Virus record (IMG/VR): IMGVR_UViG_3300048988_000011
Span: 1 to 52,506 of that record
DNA length: 52,506 nucleotides
Origin: a virus
Taxonomy: Duplodnaviria > Caudoviricetes
Reading direction: 5' to 3' (one strand)
Position numbers and translations under genes: made by a program. The notes under the pieces are model-generated. The model saw nothing but the letters and a program-made list of their open reading frames with translations. It was not told where the DNA came from and made no database searches. Position 1 is the stretch's first letter. Every line of letters begins with the position of its first letter. Below are positions 11,825 to 30,346 of the stretch, in pieces.

Positions 11825-11829
11825 TTATA

Positions 11830-12792: not shown

Positions 12793-12833
12793 ACATTAAA
12801 CCTCTTATAGTAATGAGAAGGGAAAGTCAAGGA

Positions 12834-13298
12834 TTATTTTTTCATGCTCTTTTTCGTAGCTAATCTAGACTTCTTCCTTCTAGCTCCTAATACTCCTTCT
12901 CCAGCCTCTCTCGTCCAGATAAATGCCTTAGCTAGCATAGTAACAACTCTCTCTTCATGGTTAAGATAATCTCTTTGCTGTTCAGGAGTTAGATCTCGAC
13001 TCTCCCAATTCCTCATCTCATTCACTAATATATGACAACATTCATGCACGAATACCATCTCTAGCTCATCATCTGTTTGATTAGCTACTGCTGATAATGA
13101 GAAGGTTATCTTTCCATCTAGATACTCCCATGCTGTAGAGGTGAAGGCAAGGCAGTTAAAGTTAGCACGATGGGAGGCTAATTCTCCTCGCTCGTATGCT
13201 ACTGTGAATGCCCACCAGCGTAGTCCTAGACAGGGAACCCATTTATCTATTAGATGCTTAATACGTTTCTTTTGGGTGTTATATTCTTTATCGTTCAT
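12834..13298 (-). CDS. Putative zinc metallopeptidase-like protein
   Basis: HExxH motif (VHECCHI) and downstream 'EERVV'. Confidence 0.55.
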   Translation of the reverse strand: MNDKEYNTQKKRIKHLIDKWVPCLGLRWWAFTVAYERGELASHRANFNCLAFTSTAWEYLDGKITFSLSAVANQTDDELEMVFVHECCHILVNEMRNWESRDLTPEQQRDYLNHEERVVTMLAKAFIWTREAGEGVLGARRKKSRLATKKSMKK

Positions 13299-13304
13299 TA
13301 TTCA

Positions 13305-16300
13305 TTATTCCTTAGTATTCCAATAAGAATAAGATTTAGAAGCAGCAACCGGACGCGCACGATCACCAGCTGTGTAGATATACTGCTGCTGTTGAGTAAT
13401 AGCTGCTAATCTTTTCTGCTCTCTTCTTCTTTCTGCACTATCACCTTTACCTTTAAGATTAAAGGAGTTGATAGAGAACCAAGCCATTCCTGGAGCAAAG
13501 ATTGCATCATCGTGATGCCCCGCTAATGCTTCAATCTTTCTACGAGTTATATTATAACCGAAAGTAGCAAGCTGGTTAATAACGAACTGACAGGGGATCT
13601 CTACTTCAAAATCTCTAATAGCTCTAAGCCATTCAGATAGTAAAGCATCTCGTTGCTGCTGATTAGGCTCCCATCCTAATTGCTCAGAAGGATCTTTATA
13701 TTGCCGGATAGCAAGATTACGATTAGTGAAGAAATTCTTCCAGCCGGCTTTGATCATCTCTTGGATGAGTGCTGCACCTCCCTTAGGCCGTTCTATTACT
13801 AGTTTAGGCTGTTGGTATTGATTGTTGCGCACAGTAACATAAAGTTGAGAGATAGCTTGTAAGAAGGGGAGGGATTCAGCAGCAGATATTTCATTAGAGT
13901 AGAATGCCGCAACGATCTTATCAAGCGTCCCAGCCATGTAGTCTCCTTTGCGCATGACATAGATGCAGGTAAAGTCTTGCTGAACACCATCTCCGCAATC
14001 TTCTCCTATTTCATATTCTTCATTCTCATCTGGTAGTTCCCATACTAGCAATCTGCCAGCTAAACTCATTGGGGAATAGTCTCTTAGCTTTAAAGGATAG
14101 AGAGTATATTGGTTATGATAGAGATTATTATTAGACCATTTAAATGTCAAGGGGATAGTTGAGAGAGAAGAGTCTACTTCTGATGTTAGGAATTGATTAC
14201 GGAATGGGATTAATGACTTAGCGTCTGCTACACCAAAGATATAATCAGGGATACTGCTTCTCTCTCGCAGTTGTTCGATAAACTCAGCATCAAACATTCC
14301 GCTTCCTCTAATGGCAAATGCTTCTACTGATGAAGAGGGCATTTCGCACAACCAAGTTGCTAGTCTCTTTTCTCTACGCGCTTGGTTCTTATCCCATTCA
14401 TAAAACCATTTCTGTTCTAATGACATCTTCCAATCTGCACCAAGATATTTACGAAGTAGATCATTATGATACTTAACATCATTCTGGCACTTAATGGCAA
14501 CTTTCTCAGTCTCTTCTGATGGCTTGAAATCAGAAGGCATATAAGCACGAACATCAGCCCTAGTAGGATAGATATCAGAGGCTGCATACCATGCTAAGAA
14601 GATAGGATAGAAGCGAGACTCACCTCTAAAGTAATATTGGATAGAATCCTGCCAAAGTTGATGCCAGTAATCATCTACATATTTACCTGTTGATTCTAGA
14701 ACGAAGAAGAGTCTAGGATCATTATGAATTGACTTCATCAATGAATTCTGAATATCCTCCTTAGGATCAGTCCAGTCTGGAATTTCAGTACCGTGGAACG
14801 TATCAGGAGTCTCACCTCTACCAATACCTCCTGTTTGAGTTCCAAATTGAAGACGAACACGAGAGTTCATTAATGGAGCTTCATAGTAAACTTCACCTGA
14901 ATCATAAATCTTATAAGCTTTTTCTTCTAGTAATTGTCCCTTATCATTATGTTTTTGAATAGTAGGAAGAAGATACCAAGGGAGATTATCTATTACTGTA
15001 CCCATCTTAGAAGCTAATTCACGAGTCTTATCCTCTTTGGATGAAACAGTCATGCCACGAGTGCCTTCATAGAAGAGGGCACGATGAGACATACATACTT
15101 GATCGTCTGTTGAGTTATGAGAAACGAAGCCGTTAGCTATATAAGTTCCAGTAGTGGTTTGAAGATCAACCATTCGTTGATGGACTTCTAATTTCTCTAT
15201 ATTAATTATCTTAGTCCAAGCATCTTTAGCTCCATGACCTTTTCCTGGAAGTCCTTTTCCTTCCCACCAACGAGCATCAATAAAGCGAGAGGGTCTGGTT
15301 TGTCCCATTAATCGGAATAACTCATTTATCCTTTGGAGATGAACCTTGGCAACAGGTTTACTACCAAGTTTACTATTAACTCCAGCCTCTCTATTATCAA
15401 TAGTTACTCGATAATTATAATTTCTATCAGCAAAATATTTAATAATCCTATCAAGTACTAATCCGGGAGTTTGTGTAACAGTAACTTCCACCCCTTTCCT
15501 ATATTCACCATTACTTGTTGACCATCTATAGCTTCCTTCTCCATCTAGTATTCCACTCATCCAACCATCTTCAAATGTTGATTCTTCCCAAGGATCTGAT
15601 ACATGCCTAATAGCATCACCAAGCTGAAAGTTATTAACCTTTCTCCATTCTGTTCCCGGAGCAATTCTATTGCCTTTTGTTCTCATCTTACATAAAAATC
15701 TATGGTCAGCAGTAGCAATAAGTGTTGCTCCATTCTCCATAGTAATTTTATATGTTGGTTCAGTTACATCAAACTTAGCCAAGACTGTAGCAGTTCTTAA
15801 CTTTCTACCAGCTACCTTACCTATTGAGCCTTCATCAGCTGCTATTATTTCTTCTCCTACTATTAAATCATCTATTCTTTTCCATTCCAATTTAGCTGTT
15901 AGTACTAATGTATCAGGAGAAAGGCAGGCACCCACCTGTCGCGTTTTCAACTCTTGGATGAAGATACCTATTCCCTTTAGCTCCATCTCAGCACGAACAT
16001 CGTTGATGATGAGTTGAGCTATGTTAGGTTGGTAATAATCTAATCCTTTTGAATTCCAATGTAAGATCTTGCAGTAGTTGCGAGCATAGTGAAGGTAATC
16101 AAACGTGCAGAGAAGCCTCTCATTCTGGATGAATTGGAGTTCGTCCTTTTGAAGAGGGCGAGATAGTTCTAGTTTGCCTCGATCCCTCCAGAGATCTTTA
16201 TTAATTAGATCTGTTAGTAAAGAGGAGCAGGTACGGATGTAATCGAAAGGGTAACGCTGTAACTCAAATTGGATTGAGGACTGCGCTATTTCGAGATTTC

Positions 16301-16325
16301 GTTGGATGATTTGGGGGTGGTACAT
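13305..16325 (-). CDS. terL: Terminase large subunit (intein-containing)
   Basis: 'PNIAQ' adenine-binding motif, Walker A 'LKTRQVGA|ST' split by intein, Walker B 'FHGTE', coupling motif 'EST', nuclease 'IGEDCGDG' and 'HDDAI'. Confidence 0.9.
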   Translation of the reverse strand: MYHPQIIQRNLEIAQSSIQFELQRYPFDYIRTCSSLLTDLINKDLWRDRGKLELSRPLQKDELQFIQNERLLCTFDYLHYARNYCKILHWNSKGLDYYQPNIAQLIINDVRAEMELKGIGIFIQELKTRQVGACLSPDTLVLTAKLEWKRIDDLIVGEEIIAADEGSIGKVAGRKLRTATVLAKFDVTEPTYKITMENGATLIATADHRFLCKMRTKGNRIAPGTEWRKVNNFQLGDAIRHVSDPWEESTFEDGWMSGILDGEGSYRWSTSNGEYRKGVEVTVTQTPGLVLDRIIKYFADRNYNYRVTIDNREAGVNSKLGSKPVAKVHLQRINELFRLMGQTRPSRFIDARWWEGKGLPGKGHGAKDAWTKIINIEKLEVHQRMVDLQTTTGTYIANGFVSHNSTDDQVCMSHRALFYEGTRGMTVSSKEDKTRELASKMGTVIDNLPWYLLPTIQKHNDKGQLLEEKAYKIYDSGEVYYEAPLMNSRVRLQFGTQTGGIGRGETPDTFHGTEIPDWTDPKEDIQNSLMKSIHNDPRLFFVLESTGKYVDDYWHQLWQDSIQYYFRGESRFYPIFLAWYAASDIYPTRADVRAYMPSDFKPSEETEKVAIKCQNDVKYHNDLLRKYLGADWKMSLEQKWFYEWDKNQARREKRLATWLCEMPSSSVEAFAIRGSGMFDAEFIEQLRERSSIPDYIFGVADAKSLIPFRNQFLTSEVDSSLSTIPLTFKWSNNNLYHNQYTLYPLKLRDYSPMSLAGRLLVWELPDENEEYEIGEDCGDGVQQDFTCIYVMRKGDYMAGTLDKIVAAFYSNEISAAESLPFLQAISQLYVTVRNNQYQQPKLVIERPKGGAALIQEMIKAGWKNFFTNRNLAIRQYKDPSEQLGWEPNQQQRDALLSEWLRAIRDFEVEIPCQFVINQLATFGYNITRRKIEALAGHHDDAIFAPGMAWFSINSFNLKGKGDSAERRREQKRLAAITQQQQYIYTAGDRARPVAASKSYSYWNTKE
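15114..15926 (-). mobile_element. Intein (271 aa) with one LAGLIDADG-like motif, inserted in TerL Walker A
   Basis: Starts CLSPDTLV, block B 'ATADHRF', 'WMSGILDGEGS', ends 'YIANGFVSHN' followed by Ser. Confidence 0.92.
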
Positions 16326-16567
16326 TAGCTAGCTAATGATAACCTAGTAGTAATCTCTGTTCTAGCCATAAATCTAACCTCACATCCAAATATACATCTA
16401 CCTTTATGACTTCTATTCAGTACACATTTATGAGCAGTCTTATGTGAGTCGATTGTATAACGATTACCACAGCCATGATTACATTGTGGACGTTGAATAA
16501 CATCTACAATAATTCTTCGCACAGGACTAGCTTTAAGCAATCGCTTTCTTACTATACTTCTAGTCAT
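16325..16567 (-). CDS. Hypothetical basic Cys/His protein
   Basis: 80 aa ORF coupled to terL start. Confidence 0.5.
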   Translation of the reverse strand: MTRSIVRKRLLKASPVRRIIVDVIQRPQCNHGCGNRYTIDSHKTAHKCVLNRSHKGRCIFGCEVRFMARTEITTRLSLAS

Positions 16568-16569
16568 AT

Positions 16570-17175
16570 TTAATAGCCTAATTCTTTAGGAAAGAGATAT
16601 CTAGCTGAACCATCTGTTAGAGATCTAGCTATCTTCTGTTGTACTGAGACTTCAGTTTCTATTAGAAAAGATCTACGATCATATTTTTCTCTGGTAGTAT
16701 ATTTGAAGAATCCCGTAACAGGATTATAGAAGTGATCAATCTCCATTATTAGAATATCATAAGCCTTCTGCTTCTCGAACTCTTTAATAGAGTCAAGAGT
16801 CTCATGAGAGATGAAGACCTGATGAGGTTGAACAGCAATGTTGAAATGATCTCCTGAATGGTATTGACCACTATACCCAGGGATAGATGAGAAGATCCTA
16901 ACCATCTTATCATCATATCCTCCTTCTCTGGTATGAGATGGCTTGTAAGCTAACCATTGACCGACTAGTCTATTACTATCGTAGTTAGGCTTCCATCCAG
17001 TCCAGAAGTAAAGGAAGTCTCTATACCTTTCTGCTGTTACACCATAAAGCGGTTGAGGCTTAATAGCTAGCTCTTTAACGTTATTAGCAGAAGCTTGGAC
17101 CTTCATAAGAGATCCTAAAGTAGCTCCGATTGATCCAGCACCAATTAGCTTAAGTAGTTTCCTTCGATTAATCAT
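16570..17175 (-). CDS. Twin-arginine-signal protein with segments resembling the major capsid protein
   Basis: N-terminus MINRRKLLKLIGAGSIGATLG..VQA; 'WTGWKPNYDSNRLVGQWLA' vs MCP 'FTGFKPGVANTIVSGQVLA'. Confidence 0.65.
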   Translation of the reverse strand: MINRRKLLKLIGAGSIGATLGSLMKVQASANNVKELAIKPQPLYGVTAERYRDFLYFWTGWKPNYDSNRLVGQWLAYKPSHTREGGYDDKMVRIFSSIPGYSGQYHSGDHFNIAVQPHQVFISHETLDSIKEFEKQKAYDILIMEIDHFYNPVTGFFKYTTREKYDRRSFLIETEVSVQQKIARSLTDGSARYLFPKELGY

Positions 17176-17645
17176 AATGATCTCCTTCTACTAGCTAAGT
17201 GTAGAAGCTTAGCCTTCTCTTTACTAATCGCTGAGGCATCTTTAACATAATTAGCATCAAGAGACACTTGAATCCAGTAAGCATCCCCGTTGATAGCATA
17301 ATCATTTAGGAAGATACCTGCAATCATAGAAGGGTGGAATGGATTAGGTATTTTAGGGGTAGCTATAAAGTTAGCCTTATCCTTCCAGAAGACAGGACTA
17401 TCCTTAGCTATTCTATATTTCCTGTAAGGTTTCTCTATCTTTACTAGCTGATAACGAACGGGGAATCGCTCTATTGTATTCTCAGGATAGTCTATAACAG
17501 AGCCATAAATATTATCTGTCACATTGGGTAAGATAATTTTCTTAGGTTCTCCTTTATGAGGAGTAAGGGCAACTGATGGCAGTGCAGCTGCAATACCAGC
17601 AATACCAAGAAGTCTAAGTATCTCTCTTCTGTTCAGCTTCAACAT
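17172..17645 (-). CDS. Twin-arginine-signal paralog of the capsid decoration protein
   Basis: Start at 17645 (AAGGAG SD): MLKLNRREILRLLGIAGIAAALP; shares WKDKANFI with 6214..6819. Confidence 0.7.
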   Translation of the reverse strand: MLKLNRREILRLLGIAGIAAALPSVALTPHKGEPKKIILPNVTDNIYGSVIDYPENTIERFPVRYQLVKIEKPYRKYRIAKDSPVFWKDKANFIATPKIPNPFHPSMIAGIFLNDYAINGDAYWIQVSLDANYVKDASAISKEKAKLLHLASRRRSL

Positions 17646-18402
17646 ACTCAATCTCTCCTTTATCATTAACAATCTCTTCTGCAGTTATAAACTCCGTCTT
17701 CCCATTTCCATCTTCCAGCATCAACGCTTGTGCCTCTCTAACCTGCTTAACAGGATTCTTTAAAGTCTCCTCTAATGGAGGCAATCCAAATACTATCTGC
17801 TTAGAAGAGTGATCATTATTCTGTTGGTTAAACTGTATATTCACCCCATTCCCATTACTTTGTCTGCCAGTTAATCCCGCTACTTCTGTGTAAAGCTTAG
17901 TATGCTCTATATTCTCTTCTCGCTTAGCATGAACAGCTAATCTCTCCATGATCTGATTCTCATGCTTTGCTAAGGTCATAAAGCTCATTGATCTAGCCAT
18001 TTTAAACGCAGCTGCTGCTAGTTTACCATAGAGTTTATCAACTGGGATCTTATGCTTCTTGCAGAGTTTATCCCAGATGTTGATGCTGAACTTATCTTCT
18101 GTTGTTTGTAGATCGTAATCAGCTATTAGGGAAACTACTCTAGGATCTTCATCTTGAATGTGGAGAAGGAATGCATAAACAGTAGCATGATCCATTGATT
18201 GCTGGGCGAAGGCGTATGCGAGAGTGCCTGGAGTGTTCTCGTTTATTTTGGAGATAGCTCGATTGGGGAAGGAGGCTTCTCTTAGCTTTTTGCGATTGTT
18301 ACTGTTACCATTACTAATACTAGCAGTAGGCACAGTAATAGAGGGATTAATAGGAATAACATTGCTGTTATTATTACTGTTGTTAGTAGTATCTTCGCTC
18401 AT
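17614..18402 (-). CDS. Putative terminase small subunit
   Basis: 262 aa helical protein upstream of terL with TerS-like C-terminal 'GNGVNIQFNQQNN' strand; positional inference. Confidence 0.4.
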   Translation of the reverse strand: MSEDTTNNSNNNSNVIPINPSITVPTASISNGNSNNRKKLREASFPNRAISKINENTPGTLAYAFAQQSMDHATVYAFLLHIQDEDPRVVSLIADYDLQTTEDKFSINIWDKLCKKHKIPVDKLYGKLAAAAFKMARSMSFMTLAKHENQIMERLAVHAKREENIEHTKLYTEVAGLTGRQSNGNGVNIQFNQQNNDHSSKQIVFGLPPLEETLKNPVKQVREAQALMLEDGNGKTEFITAEEIVNDKGEIEYVEAEQKRDT

Positions 18403-18416
18403 GGCTCATAACTATA

Positions 18417-18623
18417 TTAAGTAGAAGGATGCAATCTTAGAACCATATCTGTAGATAGTTTGCTCTCATCATAACTAAGAGTAAACTCCTTATCACAGGC
18501 ACAGCAGATAATACTAAGTAGTAGAAACCTTATAATCCCTATAATAGTCCCTTTAACTTCCTTAGCTGAATGTGGTCCTAGGTTGTGGCATCTAGGGCAT
18601 TCTATTGATAGACTGCTAATCAT
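18417..18623 (-). CDS. Small zinc-ribbon protein
   Basis: CPRC...CCAC. Confidence 0.5.
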   Translation of the reverse strand: MISSLSIECPRCHNLGPHSAKEVKGTIIGIIRFLLLSIICCACDKEFTLSYDESKLSTDMVLRLHPST

Positions 18624-18891
18624 CTTCTTCTGTTAGCTCCTCTGTCTCTGCTTGCTTCCTCCTAGCTCGTTGCTCATCTATAAAAGCCTCCTTATCCCCA
18701 TAGATTTTAAAAGTATCCACAGAAGATGGAGGCTTTAAAGTATTACTCTGAAAACCTGGAGTTGTCAAGGGGGATGGCAATAATGCTTCTAGAGAATCAG
18801 CGACCCGCTCGGTGGCAGAGACTTGACGCTCTAATAATTTGAGAAGGCGATCCTCTTCAAATCTCTTCAATACTTGATCTACTAGGGACAT
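18616..18891 (-). CDS. Hypothetical protein
   Basis: Probable start MSLVDQVLKRF after GAGG SD; ORF track extends to 18951. Confidence 0.5.
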   Translation of the reverse strand: MSLVDQVLKRFEEDRLLKLLERQVSATERVADSLEALLPSPLTTPGFQSNTLKPPSSVDTFKIYGDKEAFIDEQRARRKQAETEELTEEDD

Positions 18892-19186
18892 AAGCTTGTT
18901 TAACCTCTTTCTCATCAACGGGAAGATTAGGATAAAGCCGATTAAATGCAAATGTTAAATCTTCCCTACTCATAATCTTCATCCCCATCAACGGCCTAAC
19001 CCTCCCTAGCACAAGCTGAATGAACTGTCCTTCTTCATCAGAAGAAGTAAAGCCTACTAAATTAGATGAGCGTAGATGAATCCATAGCTGCGTGAATGGA
19101 TCTAATGGGACATAGATTACTCGCGTTTGTGGCATATCTCTGAAGAGAGATGCTAGGAATTGGAGGTTCAGAATTAGCTCAGGCAT
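18857..19186 (-). CDS. Hypothetical protein
   Basis: 109 aa, AAGGAG SD. Confidence 0.55.
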   Translation of the reverse strand: MPELILNLQFLASLFRDMPQTRVIYVPLDPFTQLWIHLRSSNLVGFTSSDEEGQFIQLVLGRVRPLMGMKIMSREDLTFAFNRLYPNLPVDEKEVKQAYVPSRSSIEEI

Positions 19187-20845: not shown

Positions 20846-21061
20846 TTAGAACCAAGATAATTTCTCACCTATTGGTGGCGTTCCTTCCATGAATGCTTTA
20901 AAGCAGCCACGATAATCAAAGTCAATACATTTACACTTAGTGCAAGGTCTAGCCGGAGCTAGTGTTATATCTAATCCGTGATAATCATCAAATGGTTTAC
21001 AATCGTGCTCAGATTGAGAGTGATTGCAAGGACAGATTAAAATGAAGTAACCTTCTCTCAT
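20846..21061 (-). CDS. Small Cys/His protein
   Basis: CPCNH..SEH...CTKCKC.DF. Confidence 0.55.
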   Translation of the reverse strand: MREGYFILICPCNHSQSEHDCKPFDDYHGLDITLAPARPCTKCKCIDFDYRGCFKAFMEGTPPIGEKLSWF

Positions 21062-21082
21062 AATTCTATCTTTACTACTTTA

Positions 21083-21406
21083 CTATTCTAGATGAGATCC
21101 TTTGTTTAGTATCTTGCCAATTAATGAATGTCCTTCTTTCTTCTCGTTAACATACCAAGGTAAGAAGAGGCCAGTAAATCCAAACTCTCTAGTATTACCT
21201 GTTGAGTCAAGATACTTATTATAGAAGTAATCAAAGTACGGATGGTTAGTATCTGTCATTATTTCTGATCCATCATCTTCTTGCTGAGCTTTTAAGTAAG
21301 CATCTTCTAACACTTTGAATTTGAATGTTGATCTAGGAAAGCCAGCTGCTTCTCTTTGCTTCTTACGAGCAAGGCCTTCGTCTATTATCTCAATTACTCT
21401 TGACAT
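21083..21406 (-). CDS. Small protein with a terminase-like segment
   Basis: 'DYFYNKYLDS...FTGLFLPWY' vs TerL 'DYWHQLWQDS...FYPIFLAWY'. Confidence 0.6.
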   Translation of the reverse strand: MSRVIEIIDEGLARKKQREAAGFPRSTFKFKVLEDAYLKAQQEDDGSEIMTDTNHPYFDYFYNKYLDSTGNTREFGFTGLFLPWYVNEKKEGHSLIGKILNKGSHLE

Positions 21407-21909
21407 TAACTAACCTGTTCCTTAGCTTCCTTCTCCAGCTTCTGCTCTGCTTGATACTGCGTCAACAATTCATCAGTCTCAATAAAAGGCCATCTCCTAA
21501 TCGCTTCTTCCTTCATATTCTCCCATTCCTTCTTAGTATATCCCCAGTTAACAATCATACTCTGCTCAAGTGTAGCCCAGGATAGACCTTTCTCCCGATA
21601 TTCAGGCATCTGCTCAATATGATTTTCATCAATCGGTCTAGGTTCTGCCTCAACCTCAGGGGCCTCAGCAATCTCTTCAAAGTCAATATCCTCATCATCA
21701 GCGTTAAATATCTTATCTACAATATGCTCTACATTTACAGAATGTAGGACCAATTTAGGCTTAATATTAGGAGGTGTCCAGTTGAATGCCTGGGCTAGAA
21801 CCCCTTCGACGAGCTTATTCATTGAAATATCGGCGTCCATCGCGATCTGTTTTATCTTCTTTTTCAAATCTGGGTGGATTAGGAATATGGCTTGCGTAGT
21901 ACTCTTCAT
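21406..21909 (-). CDS. Ribbon-helix-helix transcriptional regulator
   Basis: 'AIFLIHPDLKKKIKQIA...ISMNKLVEGVL' Arc/CopG pattern. Confidence 0.7.
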   Translation of the reverse strand: MKSTTQAIFLIHPDLKKKIKQIAMDADISMNKLVEGVLAQAFNWTPPNIKPKLVLHSVNVEHIVDKIFNADDEDIDFEEIAEAPEVEAEPRPIDENHIEQMPEYREKGLSWATLEQSMIVNWGYTKKEWENMKEEAIRRWPFIETDELLTQYQAEQKLEKEAKEQVS

Positions 21910-21915
21910 TTTTCA

Positions 21916-21944
21916 AGCTTACACTATAAATTATTATGTGTCAA
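21916..21944 (-). promoter_or_regulatory. Sigma-70-type promoter, probably leaderless transcript
   Basis: TTGACA-N17-TAAGCT with TG extension; ATG 6 nt downstream, no SD. Confidence 0.6.
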
Positions 21945-21989
21945 GCTTTTATTCTTGACTGCCTATGATTAATCTCTAAACTGTTGTAA

Positions 21990-22334
21990 CTATTCTAGCT
22001 CCGGGTACCTCGCGGTTACTGCTAAGATATGTGCCCTCTTTTCATCATCATCCCCACCCCACTTAGAGTAAATCTCCTCCCAAGTTAATCCCCCATCACG
22101 TCGCTGTATAGTCATCTTCTCCATAACAGAATCATCTAGCATGATTAACGGTAGTTTATTACTAGGCTGAGTGAGATCCACATGCAAATACTCTGCCAGG
22201 GTTTGATTGACTAACTTGCTCATTGACCACCCTTCGCCCAACTCAGCTGCCTTCTGGCATATGGCTTGCTTTACTCGCGGGTCAAGGGTGAAAACGACTG
22301 GAATCTTGGTTATTTTTGTAGAGTTTTTGTACAT
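21990..22334 (-). CDS. Ribbon-helix-helix regulator, paralog of 21406..21909
   Basis: 'VVFTLDPRVKQAI...SMSKLVNQTL'; shared C-terminal 'GL.W' and 'R[WY]P'. Confidence 0.7.
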   Translation of the reverse strand: MYKNSTKITKIPVVFTLDPRVKQAICQKAAELGEGWSMSKLVNQTLAEYLHVDLTQPSNKLPLIMLDDSVMEKMTIQRRDGGLTWEEIYSKWGGDDDEKRAHILAVTARYPELE

Positions 22335-22342
22335 AATATGGA

Positions 22343-22371
22343 TACTAGTATAGATATTTTCTCATGTCAAC
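22343..22371 (-). promoter_or_regulatory. Sigma-70-type promoter, probably leaderless transcript
   Basis: TTGACA-N17-TAGTAT, ATG about 7 nt downstream, no SD. Confidence 0.55.
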
Positions 22372-22855
22372 TCCATAACAATAAAAAATTTCTTTCATCT
22401 AATTGTTGATTCTACTAGCTTTACCAGCTATATATGAATAACATAAGAAATAATAAGTCACTTTGTAAGGGGGGTAGAGTAATATAATTAATATTATATC
22501 GTAATAATGTATGTACTAACTCATACATTAATACTTTGATACACTCTACTGTTCTCGTGTTTGTGGATTTCTAATACTTAGCTCTGCTTGATGGCCTAAG
22601 TATCTGAGGAAGAAGGAGATATTAGTTAATATGTGAAATTTTGAAATTAATATAAATAGTTGATTTTAATATAGCTGTTATATAGAAAATATAGGAGATA
22701 AAAATAAATTTAGGGGGAAAATGAAATTAGAAAAAATTGTGCGAGGGGCCTTCTCCCTGACCATCCACCTTTCCGCTACCCTTTCGACTATGGCCTTCTG
22801 CTGCCTACCTTATATACTCCTGGCCAGATCGTTGAACAATCGTTTAACTCGTTAT

Positions 22856-22868
22856 ATATCAATGAGTT
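22856..22868 (+). promoter_or_regulatory. IHF-like binding site
   Basis: TATCAATGAGTTA matches WATCAANNNNTTR and lies in the palindrome TTTAACTC-N-GAGTTAAA; second match on minus strand near 22653-22665. Confidence 0.45.
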
Positions 22869-23049
22869 AAACATGTTTAGAGCATAGAGCAGACCATATA
22901 GTGCATCATCATACGCTTTGCGAATTGTTGTGATGATTAGACTTAGCCCAGATATCGGTCAGGGTGGCGCACCATTTCGTGCATTGTAGTGATGCGCTAC
23001 GGTCTGATAACTAGCTCTATTTGCAACACTTTGCATCGAAGCATGATGA

Positions 23050-23065
23050 TGGCACACTCCCTGCC
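23050..23065 (+). promoter_or_regulatory. Sigma-54 (-24/-12) promoter
   Basis: TGGCAC-ACTCC-CTGC with exact GG-N10-GC spacing; GCAC-N6-GTGC and GCAT-N7-ATGC palindromes at 22969-22996 resemble enhancer-binding sites. Confidence 0.6.
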
Positions 23066-23074
23066 ATAGTCGAT

Positions 23075-23500
23075 GCCTGACAGCGCAGTTGGTAGAACGC
23101 TGGTCGTGCTAGTGATGCTAAGCACTCAACCGAAAGCCCTAGTCTGATTATTAGTAGCAATACTAATACTATCACACTTTTGTTGGCCGGAGTGCCACTG
23201 ATTAAAACCAGTGCTGATCTAGATGCTAGGCGAGGAGCCTAGTAGGCACGATACCGAAACCCAACTGTAACTTGCTAGGTGACTAGCAAGATACCGAACC
23301 GCACGGTATGGCCGCGCAGTACTACCCCTAACAAAGGTAGAGACTAGCAGAGATCGGACTGTAATGCAGCACTGGCAAGGTGCAATAGTGTGGGGCATAC
23401 TCTACGCCTAGCTAGCTGATGCTTAGCTTGCCCAAAGACTAGTTCTAGGAATACGAGATTCATAAGTCCTTATCTAGTCGCCAGAGCTAGGGCTAAGTAA
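23075..23500 (+). ncRNA. Putative large structured non-coding RNA (unclassified)
   Basis: No ORF; nested helices gctaagca/tgcttagc, gctaggcg/cgcctagc, cttgctag/ctagcaag, atacc/ggtat; starts at expected sigma-54 TSS. Confidence 0.5.
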
Positions 23501-23623
23501 TGTTATTAGGTAGAGTGTGAAAGCTAATTCGATTAACTGATTCTTACTGCTATTACTCTTAGGAGTGATACTAGATAAGATAGGTTAAGAGAGTTAGCTT
23601 TTCTTCTCTCTAATCTCTAAATT

Positions 23624-24156
23624 GGAGAGTGGGCCAGTCAATAGAATCTAATAGCTTAACCTTGGAGGCTAAGCCCGGCTACTCCTGTGCTTAGTTTGCT
23701 TCTGTCCCGCTATGGCTCATGCTGCTTGCTCCGGCCATTCAGGAGCACGTTACTCTTCCACGGCGGAGCTCCAAACCAAAGGAGATGAAAATGAAAAACG
23801 ATAATCTAAGAGACGCAGGACAACTCAATTTTCACCCAGAGGATCGACCAGCGGGTCATCCAGATCACTATAGATGCTCAGCATGTAACCTGATCATCAC
23901 AGATCTGGATCTGTCAATCTCATCACACCCGAGAGATTGTCAGATCGCCTACCCGCACGTAGACCCCACAGTGGCTTATCACCTCGTTGGTGTCCTTGAC
24001 GGCGGCGCGTACGGCCACCCAATAAGCCAGTGCGGCGAAAGCTGCACTGACGGGCCGCAACCCTACCTTGCGGGTTTGACCAAAGCGCGCTAGCCACGGT
24101 ATCCATTCGCGACTACCCAACAATGCTATTAGATTCTATTGACTGGCCCACTCTCC
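23624..24156. repeat. Perfect 32-bp inverted repeat enclosing a GC-rich gene
   Basis: ggagagtgggccagtcaatagaatctaatagc (23624-23655) and its exact reverse complement (24125-24156). Confidence 0.95.
23791..24093 (+). CDS. Hypothetical Cys/His protein inside inverted repeat
   Basis: AAGGAG SD before MKNDNLRD; CSAC motif; GC-rich codons unlike the rest of the genome. Confidence 0.6.
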   Translation: MKNDNLRDAGQLNFHPEDRPAGHPDHYRCSACNLIITDLDLSISSHPRDCQIAYPHVDPTVAYHLVGVLDGGAYGHPISQCGESCTDGPQPYLAGLTKAR

Positions 24157-24175
24157 TCAGGAAAAAGAGAAAGGT

Positions 24176-24352
24176 AGAGGGTAGGCTGAATTGAGGATAG
24201 CACTTTTAATTAGAGCACACTAACATTGCTAAGTTAGCTACCAATAAGGCGAGATAGCCTAGCCAATCGGCAATACTTAATGGTATTAAACGCTAACACT
24301 AACGCAAACAGTCTCTTGTATTAATTGCTATCCTCTACTCAGTCTATTCTCT
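24176..24352 (+). other. Long RNA stem with non-coding loop
   Basis: 24176-24202 pairs with 24326-24352: 14 bp (3 G-U), 3x3 internal loop, 10 bp. Confidence 0.75.
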
Positions 24353-24374
24353 GCTTATTACTCGATTCCTGCTA

Positions 24375-24703
24375 AGTTACTAATTGAGAGATAGGCCAAT
24401 ATAGAGTAGGAGCACATCAGCATCATTTCCTCAGGAGGATAACTGATTATGCCTAAATCGTTAAGTACATCCAAGTTCATTAAGGTGAGCAAGAGTTTGT
24501 TTACCTTGACATTAGTGTGGATTGAAATGGAATGCTGGCTTAGAGATTTCAATAGCTCAGCATTAACCAAGCAACAAGCTAAGATGGTAATGAAGGCCGT
24601 CTTAGCTAAGCATCCTAACGCAGTACAGATTCTTCCATCTTAGTTAGTTCAATGGCTACTAATTGCTCCTACCTTATATTGGCTTATCTTTCTCTTAGTA
24701 ACT
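24375..24703 (+). other. Long RNA stem enclosing ORF 24449..24643
   Basis: 24375-24414 pairs with 24664-24703, with G-U pairs and two small internal loops. Confidence 0.8.
24449..24643 (+). CDS. Hypothetical protein inside stem
   Basis: 64 aa, AGGAGG SD. Confidence 0.6.
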   Translation: MPKSLSTSKFIKVSKSLFTLTLVWIEMECWLRDFNSSALTKQQAKMVMKAVLAKHPNAVQILPS

Positions 24704-24745
24704 GTAATCAATCGTTACTCTATAGAGAGTAGCGAAACAGTCTTT

Positions 24746-24837
24746 TGCGGACTGTAAGAGACTTCACTAGGATCGTCATAAATAGTCTGCTAAGCATGAC
24801 GCGACGCTTAGCCTTAGTGAAGTCAATAGAGTCCGCA
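24746..24837 (+). other. Stem enclosing an H-type pseudoknot
   Basis: tgcggact/agtccgca and gacttcactagg/cttagtgaagtc; inside, cgtcat/atgacg plus gctaagc/gcttagc. Confidence 0.65.
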
Positions 24838-24864
24838 TAATTCTAAGTAGAGGAGAATAGAGAT

Positions 24865-25440
24865 ATGCCAGTAACGAAATTACACGATAAGCTTAGACTG
24901 CCTACCATGAGCATAGCAGAAGTAAAGCTTGCTCGTAGTGCTGAACTAGATCTTTTCGTAGCACGCTCAATCGAGTTTGCTACTAGGCAAGCTAGAAACA
25001 GTAGAAGTAGACGCACTCTCTACGGCAGAGGGCAACATTCTGATACTAAGATGCTGAACTCTGAGATGCTTCACTTTCCCGCTATACTACCCTCTGGGGT
25101 AAGCGGAAAAGATGCGATAGGCGAATTGCCTAAGAAGGGTGTTCGGATAGGTGAGGCAGGCAAGCAACGGCCAGCAAAGGCCGGTTGTCGCTCTATTGTG
25201 GTCGTCAGGAAACAAGATCTGCGGAAGCAAGGCTTTCCTGATGATATGATCACTGCTATGCTAAAGGATCAAGCGCAGAGGATCAGAATCCCTGCCAAAA
25301 AGGTAGCTGAATGCAAGAGAATCCAGTTGATGTTGGCGCATGATGATGATAGGATAGTCAAGGGAAATGTGCTGAGTCCGAGAGTCAGCATTACTGAGGC
25401 TTTGGTGATTGCTGAGACAGTGCAGACGGAGCAGTTCTGA
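24865..25440 (+). CDS. Hypothetical basic protein
   Basis: 191 aa, GAGGAG SD. Confidence 0.65.
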   Translation: MPVTKLHDKLRLPTMSIAEVKLARSAELDLFVARSIEFATRQARNSRSRRTLYGRGQHSDTKMLNSEMLHFPAILPSGVSGKDAIGELPKKGVRIGEAGKQRPAKAGCRSIVVVRKQDLRKQGFPDDMITAMLKDQAQRIRIPAKKVAECKRIQLMLAHDDDRIVKGNVLSPRVSITEALVIAETVQTEQF

Positions 25441-25740
25441 TTAGTATGCTCTCTCCTACCATTCTGAGTGGTAGAGAGACTGGATGCTAAATCCAACCAC
25501 AAAATCTGTCAAATGAGGAGAAAAGAGAAGATATGATTAAATTCCTTCGCAGACTTCATTATAGACGCGAGGCAGGACACAGAATGCATAGAGATCGCGT
25601 CTCTAACCGCTTCTCGCGGTGTGACTGTATCTTTGTTGCTGATGTGATTAGCAGCAAGGTGAGGCTAGCTAAGGAGGTTATTTCCTCTGTTGTTAATTAG
25701 CTAATAATGCTGATGCTAAGCTAAGGAGCTAGAAGAGATG

Positions 25741-25865
25741 TAAGCTCTGCACCTTCTTACTGTTGCTGAGATACCTATGATAACCCTATGGTAGATAGGT
25801 AGAGCCACAATTTAATTTATTACTATTAGGCTCAATCAGTAACAGTAAGAAGTCAGGAGAACTTA
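25741..25865 (+). other. RNase III-site-like stem (copy 1)
   Basis: 17-bp stem 25753-25769/25836-25852 with asymmetric internal loop; shares agaagtcaggagaactta with copy 2. Confidence 0.75.
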
Positions 25866-25893
25866 TCATTTTCATTAAATGAGGAGAGAAAAG

Positions 25894-26322
25894 ATGACCC
25901 AAACAATAACTAAAGATAATGCATTAGCAGTCTTAAAGGATAAGATCAATTATGATAATTGGATTAATGCAGCTATGCGATGTGAGCAAGAAGGTACTAG
26001 AAATAGTGCTTTGAATGCTAAAATAACTGCTGCTTATGCTGCTTATGCTTATGCTGCTTATGCTGCTACTGCTGATGCTTATGCTGCTACTGCTTATGCT
26101 GCTACTGCTGATGCTTATGCTACTTATGCTGCTGCTGCTGATGCTTATGCTACTTATGCTGCTGCTGCTGATGCTGCTACTGCTTATGCTGCTGCTGCTG
26201 CTGCTACTGTTTATGGTGACAAAAGAGATGAAGTACTAACATTAGCAGCTGAAATCTGTGTAGAGGCTTGCATACTCTGCAAAACACAAGGAAGTGCGTT
26301 TTTAGAGATTACCAATAACTAA
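25894..26322 (+). CDS. Protein with Ala/Tyr low-complexity repeat
   Basis: AAYAAYAYAA... tract encoded by gctgcttatgct-type repeats at about 26025-26210. Confidence 0.7.
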   Translation: MTQTITKDNALAVLKDKINYDNWINAAMRCEQEGTRNSALNAKITAAYAAYAYAAYAATADAYAATAYAATADAYATYAAAADAYATYAAAADAATAYAAAAAATVYGDKRDEVLTLAAEICVEACILCKTQGSAFLEITNN

Positions 26323-26388
26323 GTAAGTTTTACACCTTCTCATTCCTCTGTAATTTACAGCTAAGAATGAGAAGTCAGGAGAACTTAC
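26323..26388 (+). other. RNase III-site-like stem (copy 2)
   Basis: gtaagtttt-acac-cttctcattc ... gaatgagaag-tcagg-agaacttac. Confidence 0.75.
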
Positions 26389-26425
26389 AATTAAGTAAGT
26401 TACTACCATAATAACTGTTAGGAAA

Positions 26426-26580
26426 GAAGATTACTCGGCAGGTAGTAGAACCAACGGCGTAGCAGGACGCTATATGAGACGGCTTTGGTTAGTATGAATG
26501 CGCTTATTGCTCGAATAGGCCTTTGGTAACGTACGATACTGAGGACTTAATACCTGTCTACTACCTGCCGAGTAATCTTC
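26426..26580. repeat. Perfect 24-bp inverted repeat with 107-nt structured loop
   Basis: gaagattactcggcaggtagtaga / tctactacctgccgagtaatcttc. Confidence 0.9.
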
Positions 26581-26620
26581 CTACTAAGAATGAAAGAAGA
26601 AAGAAGGAGAAAGAGAAGAG

Positions 26621-27073
26621 ATGGCCGATCAAATGACCGCAGCACAAATAGCTGCAATAACTGATCCTGCGCTACGTGCACAGGTTGAGGCGCTCTTAGC
26701 TGAGCGCAATACCTTAGCTAAGAAAGTTAAGGAAAAATCACCTACTTGGGTAGAGTTAGGTGATTATGGCAAAGGGAAAGCGGGGGTGCAGGTTTCTAAG
26801 AAGGGGCAGGTACAGTTCACTGGGACGAGGAAAGCTTATGGTGGGCTTTACTTATTCGAGACTGAGTTAGTTATGATTCTGAGTAATGCTCAGAAGATCG
26901 CTGAGTGGGTTGTTCTGCATCATGAGGAGTTGAAGAGGAAAGTTGTTGTTGCTCCTGCTGGTGATGCTAGTAATGATCCTACAGTAATTTCAGGAGAAGG
27001 CTCTGGTCCTGAACAAGCTGGTGGAGGTGAAGAAGAGAATACTAATACAATAACTGAGACTGCTTCTGCTTAA
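26621..27073 (+). CDS. Hypothetical protein
   Basis: 150 aa, AAGGAG SD. Confidence 0.7.
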   Translation: MADQMTAAQIAAITDPALRAQVEALLAERNTLAKKVKEKSPTWVELGDYGKGKAGVQVSKKGQVQFTGTRKAYGGLYLFETELVMILSNAQKIAEWVVLHHEELKRKVVVAPAGDASNDPTVISGEGSGPEQAGGGEEENTNTITETASA

Positions 27074-27162
27074 CTGCTAGAAGTAGAGAGGCTATTGAAC
27101 TTCTCCTCTAGGCTATTAGCTATTAAAATGCTAATAGCTCTGAGCGGAGGTTTAAAAAAGAG

Positions 27163-27472
27163 AATGAGCTACTTATCTGGTCAAGTAATCTGTAACTTAG
27201 AGAACTTTCAACCTTTCTGTGTTCTAGATCCATTTGATAGTCGCAGTAATTCTAATCATCCTAAACTATTTACTCATTTCCTAGTAGTAGGAACTGGGGA
27301 GATATATGTAGGACATGTTAGATGCAAAGATGACATTGAGACAGAATTAGCAATAGCTAGAAAGCTAATAGAAGATGAAAAGATAGCTCCTGGCATTGCT
27401 AGAGGATTAACTGGTTGTCTTAGGCGGCTAGATGTGCAATTAGATAATGAATGGAGTTGTGAGCAGGCTTAA
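27163..27472 (+). CDS. Hypothetical protein
   Basis: Probable start MSYLSG after GGAGG; the upstream extension in the ORF track is a hairpin (27098-27152). Confidence 0.55.
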
Positions 27473-27475
27473 GAG

Positions 27476-27691
27476 ATGCTATCGTTATACCAAGCAATGA
27501 CCAATAATTACATACCTAGACGCAATCATCTAGGCAGTAAGCTAGGATTAAGGAAGCGTAAGCAGTTATTGAGATACTATAAATGGACTGCTGAACTAGC
27601 TACTGCCATTTCTCGGCTAATGTCTAATATGGAATTAGTAAGGCTAGGTTTAGCTGAGATTGATGAAGTTGAAGATTGTGAGGAGGTTTAA
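27476..27691 (+). CDS. Hypothetical protein
   Basis: 71 aa ORF in operon. Confidence 0.5.
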   Translation: MLSLYQAMTNNYIPRRNHLGSKLGLRKRKQLLRYYKWTAELATAISRLMSNMELVRLGLAEIDEVEDCEEV

Positions 27692-27700
27692 CACAAAGAG

Positions 27701-27826
27701 ATGGCAAAAAGTAGCAAGATCCAAGTAATAATATTTACTGTTGCTATTGTTACACTAGCTGCTTCATTAGCTGGCTGGATAGTACTGGTAGCAATAGTAA
27801 TTCACTTCTTAGTGAAGTATTGGTAA
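27701..27826 (+). CDS. Small membrane protein
   Basis: Hand-translated MAKSSKIQVIIFTVAIVTLAASLAGWIVLVAIVIHFLVKYW; AGGAGG SD. Confidence 0.55.
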   Translation: MAKSSKIQVIIFTVAIVTLAASLAGWIVLVAIVIHFLVKYW

Positions 27827-27832
27827 AAAATA

Positions 27833-28012
27833 ATGAGCAAGCCAAAAGAGAAGCTAGAACGTCTACAACAAAGGCTTGACTGCCTAAATGCACGGTTTGC
27901 AAGCTCGTCTATGTTAAGTTTTGAGGATGAGAGACGTGAGGCTTCTGCATTACGTTGGGCAATTACTCTACTAACAAATCTTATTAGTAAGAAGGATAAG
28001 AGAGATGCTTAA
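27833..28012 (+). CDS. Hypothetical protein (59 aa)
   Basis: Hand-translated MSKPKEKLERLQQRL...; fills gap between genes. Confidence 0.5.
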   Translation: MSKPKEKLERLQQRLDCLNARFASSSMLSFEDERREASALRWAITLLTNLISKKDKRDA

Positions 28013-28265
28013 ATATCGTGCTAATTGTCAAAACTGTATTGACAATATTATGCATATCCACATCAAGGATGAGATTCCTACTATCTACATAACACTATCA
28101 GGTGGAGTAGTAGCTCAACTATTATCTGATCTGCCAGCTAATGTCTTCATCATTGATGAAGATAATGGGAGAGCAGGTGAAGTTGAGATTGAGGAGTGTA
28201 ACTTGGTAGGAATTACCGAGTCTAACTGTGATATGTTAGAGGAGATGAGGAAAAAATGTCAGTAA
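28005..28265 (+). CDS. Hypothetical protein
   Basis: 'ITLSGGVV......NVFIIDEDN' pattern seen in small phage proteins. Confidence 0.55.
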   Translation: MLKYRANCQNCIDNIMHIHIKDEIPTIYITLSGGVVAQLLSDLPANVFIIDEDNGRAGEVEIEECNLVGITESNCDMLEEMRKKCQ

Positions 28266-28477
28266 TGAGTACCCAAAAGAGAAAGTTATCTAATGTTAGA
28301 ATGCTTAAGTCAAAGGGCATTCCTATTAACTCTTCTCTTAACCATTTACGACGCATTCAGAATATTAGAGCTAAGCAAGCTATTAATTTAGCTAATCATC
28401 TTAGTGCTAATACTGTTGCTGAGGAGATTGAGAATAAGAATGAGTCAGACTCAACAACAACAACAGGATCAGAGTAA
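28256..28477 (+). CDS. Hypothetical basic protein
   Basis: 73 aa ORF. Confidence 0.45.
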   Translation: MSVMSTQKRKLSNVRMLKSKGIPINSSLNHLRRIQNIRAKQAINLANHLSANTVAEEIENKNESDSTTTTGSE

Positions 28478-28618
28478 AAAGCCTATGGAGGGTTTTGGAC
28501 GCTTTGAAAGCTTAATCAACTAGCTAGAGAGCTATGTAGAAAATTCACTCCAAATCGTGTCTTGAATAATCCTCACATCAAGAGTATGATGATGCCCCAT
28601 TTTCTAACTCTTTGAGAA

Positions 28619-28743
28619 AGAGAAGTTTACGCCTTAGTAGAGCCTGAACCTCAAGTATAGTCTATGAGCATTCTAGAGCGAGGGATTCTTGTACTACTAA
28701 CAGCTAATACCTGTAGTAGTTCTACTAAGGCGTAAGCCTCTCT
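28619..28743 (+). other. Long RNA stem with branched loop
   Basis: gtttacgccttagtagagc / gttctactaaggcgtaagc (19 bp, 2 G-U). Confidence 0.75.
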
Positions 28744-28807
28744 TCTATCTAACAATTAGCAGTAGAGGCTAATTCTGAGAAGAAAGAGAAAGAGAGGGAT
28801 AAACCAA

Positions 28808-30346
28808 ATGATTGAATTTACTAACGTAATGATTGATCCTAAGCTTGCTGCTAACCTCTCATCTCTTAGTAATAATGAAGAGAAAGAGAAAGAAGAAGAG
28901 AAGCAAAAGATAATTCCGATTAGCTCTCTACCTTCTTTAATAGGTCAGCCATTAAAGGTATTGATTCCTGATAACTATATTACTCCAACAGGGGTTAAGG
29001 AGATTAGGAATTATATACTGCGTAGTTATTGTACTGATCGTTACTATCTTGATCTGATCAAACTCCCAGAAGAATCTACAGAGGATTTCGTCTGGGTGTG
29101 GTTAGATCCTAAGCATGGTACGCTACCAAAAAGGATGCGTAGATGGCTAAAGAAGAGGATTAAAGCTGATCCTGATCCTGCTATCTTAGCAGAGATAGGG
29201 AATATTGCTAGACGGAATTCTGAATCTGCTCAAGAATACTATTTTGAGATAACAGATGAGATAGAATGGTCTAGCACTGAGTTCGGACAAGCCTCTAATG
29301 GTAGCTGTTGGTGGACTAGCGGGAGTAATGGAGAATATAGCGGTCCTAGTCCTAATAGCTATTGTAGAAACTTCTTAGCTGAAGGAGGACTAGCAGTTAA
29401 GTTCTTCAAATCTCACGAAGATAGAACTAATAGTAATGGAATAGGTAGAATGTGGATTATGATTAATCCTACTAATGCCTTCTACGGCACTGATGCTAAT
29501 AACTGGGCAGTTCTATTCAACGGCTATTGGGAAGGACAAGGTGCCACTCTTAAGCTTAGCAGAATATTAGCTACTTATCTTGGGTTAGGGTATCTTAAGA
29601 TATTAGTTGAGCCGGGGCAGAGATTCTACATTAATAAAGATGCGGGGTATTTGCTAGGTGAGCAGAGCTTGATACAGAAGCTACATGCTAAGATTGCTGC
29701 TGTTAGTGATGAGATTGCTAGCATTAACATCCCTAGAGTAATTCCTATGGAGTTCTGTAATATCTGTAGTAGCTCTAAGGAGAAAGCTTCTTTCCAAGAG
29801 ATACTAGATAATACTAGAAGCTCTATAAGAATGTGTGAAGGATGCTTTGTTGATTTATGTGTTCGGTGTACTAACTGCGCTGATAAATTTGATAAGCGTT
29901 CAGTAATGCTAACAACTGTCTATAATGTTGACAGACTTAATAGAGCTTCGCAGTACTGTGATCAATGCCTTACTCGATATGCTGCAATTTGTGCAGGACC
30001 TTGTGGTAGGACTATAATTGCTAGTAACTACTACAATAGTAGCATCGAAGATAGAAAAGTATGCAAAGATTGCAGTCCTAAAATTCCTAGATGCAAATCT
30101 GATTACTGTAGAAGAAGAACTCTACAAGTAGATGCTATGGGAGATAGCTACTGTAATAACTGTCAAGATGAATTTGAGAGAGAGATCCAACTACCTGAGA
30201 TTGACCTTTTGACTGATAACTTTGTCGTTTCAATAGTAGAACATAATCCTTGGAATGAAGATAATGGTTATCGTGCAGCAGACCCATATGGGGGGTGTCA
30301 ATGTTCTGTCTGTAGGAATGATAGGATAAGTAAGCTATGGGGATAA
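28808..30346 (+). CDS. Hypothetical protein with C-terminal CxxC repeats
   Basis: 512 aa; 'SCW', 'IGRMWI', 'YIN' motifs and many CxxC. Confidence 0.75.
   Translation: MIEFTNVMIDPKLAANLSSLSNNEEKEKEEEKQKIIPISSLPSLIGQPLKVLIPDNYITPTGVKEIRNYILRSYCTDRYYLDLIKLPEESTEDFVWVWLDPKHGTLPKRMRRWLKKRIKADPDPAILAEIGNIARRNSESAQEYYFEITDEIEWSSTEFGQASNGSCWWTSGSNGEYSGPSPNSYCRNFLAEGGLAVKFFKSHEDRTNSNGIGRMWIMINPTNAFYGTDANNWAVLFNGYWEGQGATLKLSRILATYLGLGYLKILVEPGQRFYINKDAGYLLGEQSLIQKLHAKIAAVSDEIASINIPRVIPMEFCNICSSSKEKASFQEILDNTRSSIRMCEGCFVDLCVRCTNCADKFDKRSVMLTTVYNVDRLNRASQYCDQCLTRYAAICAGPCGRTIIASNYYNSSIEDRKVCKDCSPKIPRCKSDYCRRRTLQVDAMGDSYCNNCQDEFEREIQLPEIDLLTDNFVVSIVEHNPWNEDNGYRAADPYGGCQCSVCRNDRISKLWG

Follow-up and report, generated by a model that had tools for sequence, protein, structure and literature searches.

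A gene-free tract between the late and early genes

The window analysed here is the full 52,506-base IMG/VR virus record IMGVR_UViG_3300048988_000011, which is classed as linear, is estimated to be 80% complete and belongs to a tailed, uncultivated soil phage. The minus strand carries its late genes, as far as position 22334, and the plus strand its early and replication genes. The two blocks are separated by a divergent gap of 2.5 kb (22335–24864), which represents about 5% of the 52.5 kb and is the largest tract of the window that is poor in open reading frames (ORFs). In this gap a first-pass annotation, made from the letters alone, had flagged positions 23075–23605 as a large structured RNA at the head of the early transcript, possibly of a new class. 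The position is right: the flagged stretch has an AT-rich spacer on one side and the plus-strand early genes on the other. It is non-coding, and on the predicted fold its real unit is a stem-closed domain of 397 nucleotides (nt), named domain B (23122–23518), with a trailing 84-nt hairpin. The proposed extent is not retained, as the structured, ORF-free tract runs from 22784 to 24864; the stretch is a single member of a larger pattern, in which other members are more extreme. The tract is genuine, unusually self-complementary, gene-free and of no known family.

The absence of genes rests on several observations. No convincing ORF was found in the flagged stretch, even when TAG is read as glutamine (TAG=Q) or genetic code table 4 is used. 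On the plus strand there is no ORF of at least 30 amino acids (aa) between 22870 and 23687, and the minus-strand ORFs of the flagged stretch are only 39–59 aa long, with scores of −0.14 to −0.31 bits per codon under a codon model for which 18 long genes of the phage served as the training set. ORFs across 22335–24864 score −0.31 to +0.10 bits per codon, whereas 20 other small genes in this phage reach +0.08 to +0.69. A doubtful 49-aa ORF (22721–22870), which contains the 5′ arm of the neighbouring domain A, scores −0.27. The small ORFs of the gap have no family match, and the public gene set has no call inside domain B. A recoded protein gene was considered and rejected: TAG=Q and table 4 readings open junk frames only, and 1.84 billion representative proteins include no match to the longest of the TAG=Q frames (186 aa).

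Predicted fold of domain B

The statistical excess of self-complementarity is clear. Folded as plus-strand RNA, positions 23060–23610 reach −195.6 kcal/mol (z score −5.37), a stability attained by none of 100 dinucleotide shuffles, and they contain eight perfect Watson–Crick stems of at least 8 bp, against 2.5 ± 1.7 in shuffles (eight being reached in two of 300). The word CTAG occurs 15 times in 531 nt, the highest count of any window of that size in the genome (1040 windows, mean 3.4); local shuffles contain it 7.4 ± 2.2 times and reach 15 in four of 2000 cases. Three copies of ACCGAA, as in the stretch, were obtained in none of 2000 shuffles. Domain B also has a GC content of 0.47, against 0.41 for the genome, and long GC-rich intergenic regions are a class in which structured noncoding RNAs are sought, as outlined in part of PMC8723152.

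The minimum-energy helices are well defined, with base-pair probabilities (p) of 0.8–1.0 across B, and the domain persists in the global fold of 22335–25000. An interrupted closing helix brings together the two ends of B and encloses a small hairpin with a GNRA loop, a long interrupted helix that leads to a three-way junction, and further hairpins (Table 1). The long helix is firmly predicted at its ends (p 0.96–0.97) and only loosely in its middle (0.34–0.66). We read each copy of the 18-nt repeat that carries ACCGAA as coming after a predicted hairpin. Moreover, the segment CGGUAU (23304–23309) can pair with either of two AUACCG copies, the alternative costing 4.3 kcal/mol.

All of the elements listed in the first-pass annotation are present within a few bases, but its pair readings, like its extent, need correction. 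Two long-range pairs had been proposed, GCUAAGCA (23117–23124) with UGCUUAGC (23420–23427) and GCUAGGCG (23225–23232) with CGCCUAGC (23405–23412). Both are perfect 8-bp complements, yet their probability in the ensemble is about 0 and forcing them costs 9–19 kcal/mol; with 2.5 such stems expected from chance alone, a single 8-bp pair is uninformative. A third pair, described as crossing the others, is indeed predicted to form between AGCCCUAGUCUG (23135–23146) and CAGA-GCUAGGGCU (23482–23494); rather than crossing, it belongs to the dominant closing stem of B (p 0.9–0.98). The three ACCGAA motifs start at 23129, 23253 and 23293 as reported, and the long hairpin placed at about 23520–23601 was recovered at 23519–23602. 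The segment likened to a tRNA D-loop, AGUUGGUA, is present at 23087–23094, but the hairpin drawn around it (23082–85/23098–101) has a probability of 0.03.

The loops give a hint of strand. Among the 33 tetraloop hairpins of the window with stems of at least 6 bp, a GNRA loop is read on the plus strand in three and on the minus strand in one. The two 8-bp tetraloop hairpins of B account for two of the three. Together with the plus-strand genes downstream, these loops hint at a plus-strand RNA.

The phage's sole listed sequencing-run holder is a soil metagenome (X1, a DNA run; RNA runs listed: 0). The contigs of X1 are identical to the window, with no variants inside B. One 57-nt contig of depth 9 shares 23569–23598 and then diverges from the main path (depth about 28), its divergent 27 letters being absent from the window. 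On these contigs the branch at 23598, just after the long hairpin, would be either a variant carried by a minor part of the population or a joint left by a rearrangement.

A predicted chain of stem-closed domains

The global fold of 22335–25000 (2.67 kb) is a succession of stem-closed domains, A, B, C, D and E, with closing helices of 11 to about 60 bp. Domain A is closed by a perfect stem that is present in the minimum free-energy (MFE) structure, in the centroid and in the global fold. Element C differs from its surroundings in composition, its interior having a GC content of 0.54 (genome 0.41) and a GC skew of −0.135 (early genes +0.17). For its 100-aa plus-strand ORF neither a homologue nor a Pfam or PHROG family was found; the gene called there in the public gene set is a different one, a 69-aa ORF on the minus strand. 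Element C may be a mobile element resembling the mycobacteriophage mobile elements (MPMEs) or an invertible segment. Its orientation is probably not readable from the contigs because the 32-bp repeat exceeds the word of the Logan assembler, which we take to be 31.

In domain D, an 18-bp run (24172–89/24339–56) includes five G–U pairs and can form only in plus-strand RNA; a 19-bp run in domain E (24386–404/24674–92) includes three. The 64-aa ORF enclosed by domain E is called in the public gene set and falls in a cluster of one member. Taken together, D, E and the hairpins that follow (24157–24864) have a z score of −12.3, and the plus strand has a fold advantage of 31 kcal/mol over 24157–24864 and of 16 kcal/mol over 23060–23610. 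As for the suggestion of a new class, no Rfam family matches B, but the ORF-poor leader holds five or six stem-closed domains of which B is just one, and its neighbours are more extreme.

The same pattern as in the leader is seen in two further early intergenic inverted repeats (26426–26580 and 28625–28737); one is a perfect 24-bp repeat whose arms are separated by 107 nt, and the other measures 19 bp.

Table 1. Features of the window discussed in the text (p, base-pair probability; z, z score of the fold)
Feature	Position	Strand	Remarks
P22-like portal	9605–11824	minus	late block
Intein-bearing large terminase	13305–16325	minus	late block
114-aa protein gene, divergent from leader	21990–22334	minus	
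AT-rich spacer, GC 0.26	22335–22720	.	between RHH-like gene and structured tract
Domain A, 290 nt	22784–23073	plus	perfect 11-bp stem 22784–22794/23063–23073; z −3.08
Linker with D-loop-like AGUUGGUA (23087–23094)	23074–23121	plus	
Domain B, 397 nt, 21-bp interrupted closing helix	23122–23518	plus	23122–23146 with 23482–23518; p 0.8–0.98
18-nt motif GCAnnAnACCGAAnCC, three copies	23122–23139, 23246–23263, 23286–23303	plus	72–83% identity; hold ACCGAA motifs
8-bp hairpin, GCAA (GNRA) tetraloop	23149–23168	plus	mean p 0.97
36-bp interrupted helix enclosing three-way junction	23173–23392	plus	23173–23220 with 23351–23392
Three-way junction	23224–23348	plus	p 0.94–1.0
Junction hairpin with GAGGA loop	23224–23244	plus	
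Junction arm, internal loop of about 10 × 9 nt	23245–23313	plus	bears 8-bp GUGA (GNRA) hairpin 23271–23290
Small junction hairpin	23322–23340	plus	
Further hairpins inside B	23393–23433, 23437–23479	plus	p 0.86 and 1.0, respectively
AT-rich interrupted hairpin, 84 nt, 34 bp	23519–23602	plus	mean p 0.94; then UUCUUCUCUC
Element C, 533 bp, perfect 32-bp terminal inverted repeats	23624–24156	.	z −11.2
Domain D, 214 nt, hairpin-like, 61 predicted bp	24158–24371	plus	
Domain E, 37-bp closing helix around 64-aa ORF (24449–24643)	24375–24703	plus	
Family A DNA polymerase fused to N-terminal uracil-DNA-glycosylase-superfamily domain	46242–48926	plus	

Searches for relatives and known families

A search of the whole window with the 4227 families of Rfam 15, which include GOLLD, ROOL, OLE, raiA, HEARO, RNase P, transfer-messenger RNA (tmRNA), 6S and group I/II introns, gave no family at the gathering score; at E ≤ 10 there are just chance matches of 11–20 bits to unrelated families. 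ARAGORN, with and without introns allowed, found no tRNA or tmRNA in the window at its default setting and low-score junk at -ps70 and -ps80. As far as model matches go, the hallmarks of tmRNA, RNase P and group I/II introns are lacking, as the annotation stated. A tRNA interrupted by a group I intron was rejected on the ARAGORN search and the null result with the group I model (RF00028).

Relatives of the locus were equally elusive. In IMG/VR, at least 119 stretches contain GATACCGAA twice, and among the matches listed none of the 119 is similar by nhmmer; a three-part pattern retrieved six stretches, none of them similar, and two further patterns retrieved none. IMG/VR scans with the neighbouring proteins revealed no related locus. 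The large terminase (TerL) has six relatives (P0002–P0007) with 58–68% identity in a large protein collection, which are encoded on Logan and NCBI contigs of 14–72 kb, and an alignment of TerL found no relatives in IMG/VR and GTDB genomes. In JGI metagenomes, relatives of TerL lie on three syntenic contigs of 4.1–6.9 kb, which end 3–4 kb short of the region. The TerL of Tunturiibacter phage Tunturi_1 is 28% identical, and the gap at the divergence point of that phage is only about 495 nt. The intein of the window's terminase is PF14890 (residues 149–404); two of the six TerL relatives (P0003 and P0005) are annotated with PF14890 and four are not.

A replication origin of the DnaA type was also considered and found no support. 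Not one of the window's 15 near-consensus DnaA boxes lies within 22335–24864, and their total is at the chance level. There are only three 18-nt repeats, and the AT-rich tract is more than 400 nt from B. The cumulative GC skew has its minimum at 23–25 kb, where it is confounded by the switch in transcription direction.

Genes on either side

The 114-aa protein encoded divergently from the tract has as its nearest structural neighbours in the ESM Atlas ribbon–helix–helix (RHH), CopG and MetJ-type clusters; an RHH-type identity is a lead only, because every neighbour has a TM below 0.5. On the minus strand, a sigma-70-like TTGACA-17-TAGTAT (22370 to 22342) ends 8 nt before the ATG at 22334, which suggests a nearly leaderless, repressor-type gene. 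The spacer at 22335–22720 presumably carries divergent promoters. Downstream, the plus-strand early block encodes a DUF932 protein, a PIF1-type helicase and a family A polymerase with a uracil-DNA-glycosylase-like N-terminus. A 147-aa ORF (25879–26322) consists mostly of 9–15-nt GCT-rich tandem repeats and has the top codon score among the small genes. In the late block, the 400-nt window 7717–8116, antisense to a late gene, has a plus-strand z score of −11.3, which was obtained with 12 shuffles only and may be noise.

A possible folded early leader and its alternatives

We favour, with a probability of roughly 40%, a reading in which B is a cis-acting domain of a long, heavily base-paired, multi-domain early leader. 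As we infer it from the predicted architecture, the leader would be transcribed rightward from the AT-rich spacer. Its long helices, of at least two helical turns, would be cut or bound by the RNase III of the host, an enzyme specific for double strands, or would otherwise shield the transcript. The leader might thus be processed into discrete stem-ended pieces, and this processing could govern early-transcript stability and the time at which early genes are expressed. Domain B, in which hairpin–ACCGAA repeats accompany a GNRA-capped three-way junction, would act in cis as a folded module or be released as a stable RNA; for example, it could be an antitermination element that binds a protein or polymerase, or a processing element. 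If so, a chain of stem-closed RNA domains would be an unusual organisation of early-transcript processing and timing, and the leader would be a possible source of new stable RNAs. An idealised substrate of E. coli RNase III has about 22 bp (two A-helical turns), and internal loops lead to single-strand cuts, according to the portion of PMC3867540 on which we draw. By this E. coli measure, the predicted helices are of suitable length in B (21 and 36 bp), C (32 bp), D (61 bp) and E (37 bp).

Several points weigh against a folded leader. The annotation was right that the stretch is strongly self-complementary, but an RNA nature does not follow: the core (23117–23518) shows no preference for either strand, or for RNA over DNA parameters (z scores: plus strand, −4.35; minus strand, −4.69; DNA parameters, −5.0), and the fold of 23060–23610 has 16 G–U pairs on either strand. 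Energy is therefore no proof of RNA, and palindromic DNA would be equally compatible with a core fold of this kind. In element C the minus strand even gives the more stable fold, by 18 kcal/mol, and the GC skew is of opposite sign. The excess of structure is not confined to B. On a 400-nt grid, which is noisy at 12 shuffles per window, six of 86 windows have z scores of −4.35 or lower, five of them in the early region, where some fall within genes; B itself is split between two grid windows, which reach only −2.7 and −1.8. Inside B, the z score of local 150-nt windows falls below −3 in only three of 11. A promoter scan found no consensus plus-strand promoter (its four sites, against 4.8 expected, are all on the minus strand), and a terminator scan found no canonical terminator, the 84-nt hairpin (23519–23602) failing its criteria. 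Finally, blastn searches with 22335–23800, 23060–23610 and 23610–24900 revealed no similarity to INPHARED phages or PLSDB plasmids.

The strand symmetry of the core leads directly to the main alternative, which we regard as possible, although clearly on the improbable side: that the apparent RNA structure is a by-product of inverted repeats in the DNA. These would be decayed or intact palindromic mobile elements in a dispensable intergenic region, resembling MPMEs or miniature inverted-repeat transposable elements (MITEs), or else clustered palindromic protein-binding sites. Inverted repeats bound each domain, CTAG-centred palindromes are at their genome maximum here, and the divergent neighbour might be an RHH-type DNA-binding regulator, a weak lead given its TM values below 0.5. 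Element C, with its perfect 32-bp ends and foreign composition, is the best case, and ultra-small mobile elements of phages are documented (MPME1, 439 bp, with IR-L and IR-R, in the section of PMC3029335 that concerns it). The minor branch of X1 at 23598 is also compatible with presence/absence variation nearby. Yet neither B nor C has a second copy in the window, in INPHARED phages or in PLSDB plasmids, a 20-mer from the end of C is absent from GTDB genomes, and no target-site duplication is visible at the ends of C. Palindromic DNA does not explain the orientation bias of the GNRA loops or the G–U runs in D and E. Moreover, the terminal repeats that define such elements are perfect only in C, the counterpart in B being an imperfect 21-bp closing helix around a branched junction rather than a simple long hairpin. 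If a pile-up of mobile elements were nevertheless the explanation, it would point to MITE-like traffic in a soil phage lineage almost without sequenced relatives.

A more deflationary account, which we consider doubtful, gives the tract no specific function: a fast-evolving spacer would owe its self-complementarity to its CTAG-rich composition and to local duplication. The lack of homologues in the searched collections and the chance level of individual 8-bp pairs fit this account. So does the early region, which is generally over-structured, its coding parts included (local 150-nt windows with z scores below −3 number 26 of 180 in 21001–29951, compared with nine of 381 in 1–19000). The z score of −5.4 against dinucleotide shuffles, the well-defined helices and the GNRA loops argue against it, as does the cost of 2.5 kb of noncoding DNA in a phage genome of 52.5 kb (at an estimated 80% completeness); a gene-free tract of 2.5 kb is rare in phages.

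It is distinctly unlikely, in our judgement, that B founds a new trans-acting class of large ornate phage RNAs of the GOLLD/ROOL kind, in which some 400–530 nt would be released as a scaffold, sponge or catalyst. Its size, its branched and well-defined fold, the two GNRA tetraloops on perfect 8-bp stems, the repeated module of a hairpin with a single-stranded ACCGAA and the lack of an Rfam match would suit such an RNA, and GOLLD, ROOL and OLE make this an established kind, as set out in passages of PMC12286853. Against it, the fold is strand-symmetric, no canonical tetraloop receptor is seen opposite in a helix by inspection, and the place of B among a series of similar domains speaks for a function of the leader as a whole more than for one specific to a class. 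The claim is also a single-sequence prediction, and with no homologue found no RNA class can be defined from B. We give the same low odds to the wider proposal that B, perhaps together with its sister domains, would be the first known example of a novel class of large, GNRA-braced phage RNAs set free from an early leader, be it a trans-acting ornate RNA or an exon-less, group I-derived ribozyme core, and that, more broadly, the early region in this phage clade may be packaged as a series of stem-closed RNA ‘cassettes’.

A group I-like ribozyme as such is very improbable. It would use GACUAG/CUAGUC as a P7 that crosses a P3-like helix (23209–23220/23351–23361), with P4-, P5- and P6-like arms between them. 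A hand-drawn P3 – P4/P5 – P6 – P7 – P3′ … P7′ topology does fit the MFE helices, GNRA loops are present, and GGUAGAGACUAG (23336–23347) and AUCUAGUC (23472–23479) resemble what we take to be the consensus of the group I R and S elements. But RF00028 has no match at E ≤ 10 in the genome (five candidates scored), in a search whose control was positive in eight of 14 known genomes, and the P7-like pair has a probability of 0 in the nested ensemble, which cannot hold pseudoknots. B contains GACUAG three times and CUAGUC twice, so that this pairing is degenerate. No gene or tRNA is interrupted (there is no flanking plus-strand ORF, and ARAGORN found none), no P1 with its U–G pair and no omega-G is seen by inspection, the supposed P3 is part of the 36-bp helix and an extra hairpin would occupy J3/4.

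Comparison with known systems

Element C is like the mycobacteriophage MPMEs, as they are described in the relevant part of PMC3029335, in being a 533-bp segment with terminal inverted repeats and a small ORF in a phage, but it has no sequence similarity to anything searched, no second copy and no visible 6-bp insertion signature. Domain B is likewise bounded by inverted repeats, whereas its ends are imperfect and its interior is branched. With group I introns (RF00028), B shares motifs that we take to be R- and S-like, a P3/P7 pseudoknot that can be drawn and GNRA-capped peripheral hairpins; unlike them, it has no model match, exons, P1 or omega-G, and its helix proportions are wrong. GOLLD and ROOL RNAs are often phage-borne and, like B, are several hundred nucleotides long and multi-branched, with GNRA loops. 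Here, however, there is no covariance-model match and no tRNA anywhere in the window.

Several antitermination and immunity RNAs are borne on leaders: the lambda nut boxB, HK022 put, P4 CI RNA and P1 c4. B resembles them in its place at the head of the early operon. Its hairpins with GNRA-type loops (GUGA, GCAA and GAGGA) beside a repeated single-stranded motif recall the boxB/boxA arrangement of lambda, and its repeated, mutually complementary short segments recall P4 seqA/B/C. B is five- to ten-fold larger than these RNAs, though, and no boxA consensus, N- or Q-like protein or demonstrated terminator was found.

For the leader as a whole, the systems to compare are the RNase III signals in the early polycistronic transcripts of T7 and the long-range stems that bracket 16S and 23S rRNA. 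In the present phage the long-range stems, which are predicted only, close segments of 200–530 nt that are mostly ORF-less, and they are concentrated in a 2.5-kb leader rather than lying between genes. Yet the arrangement is otherwise alike, with helices of at least two turns, some of them with internal loops, placed between or around segments of one long transcript.

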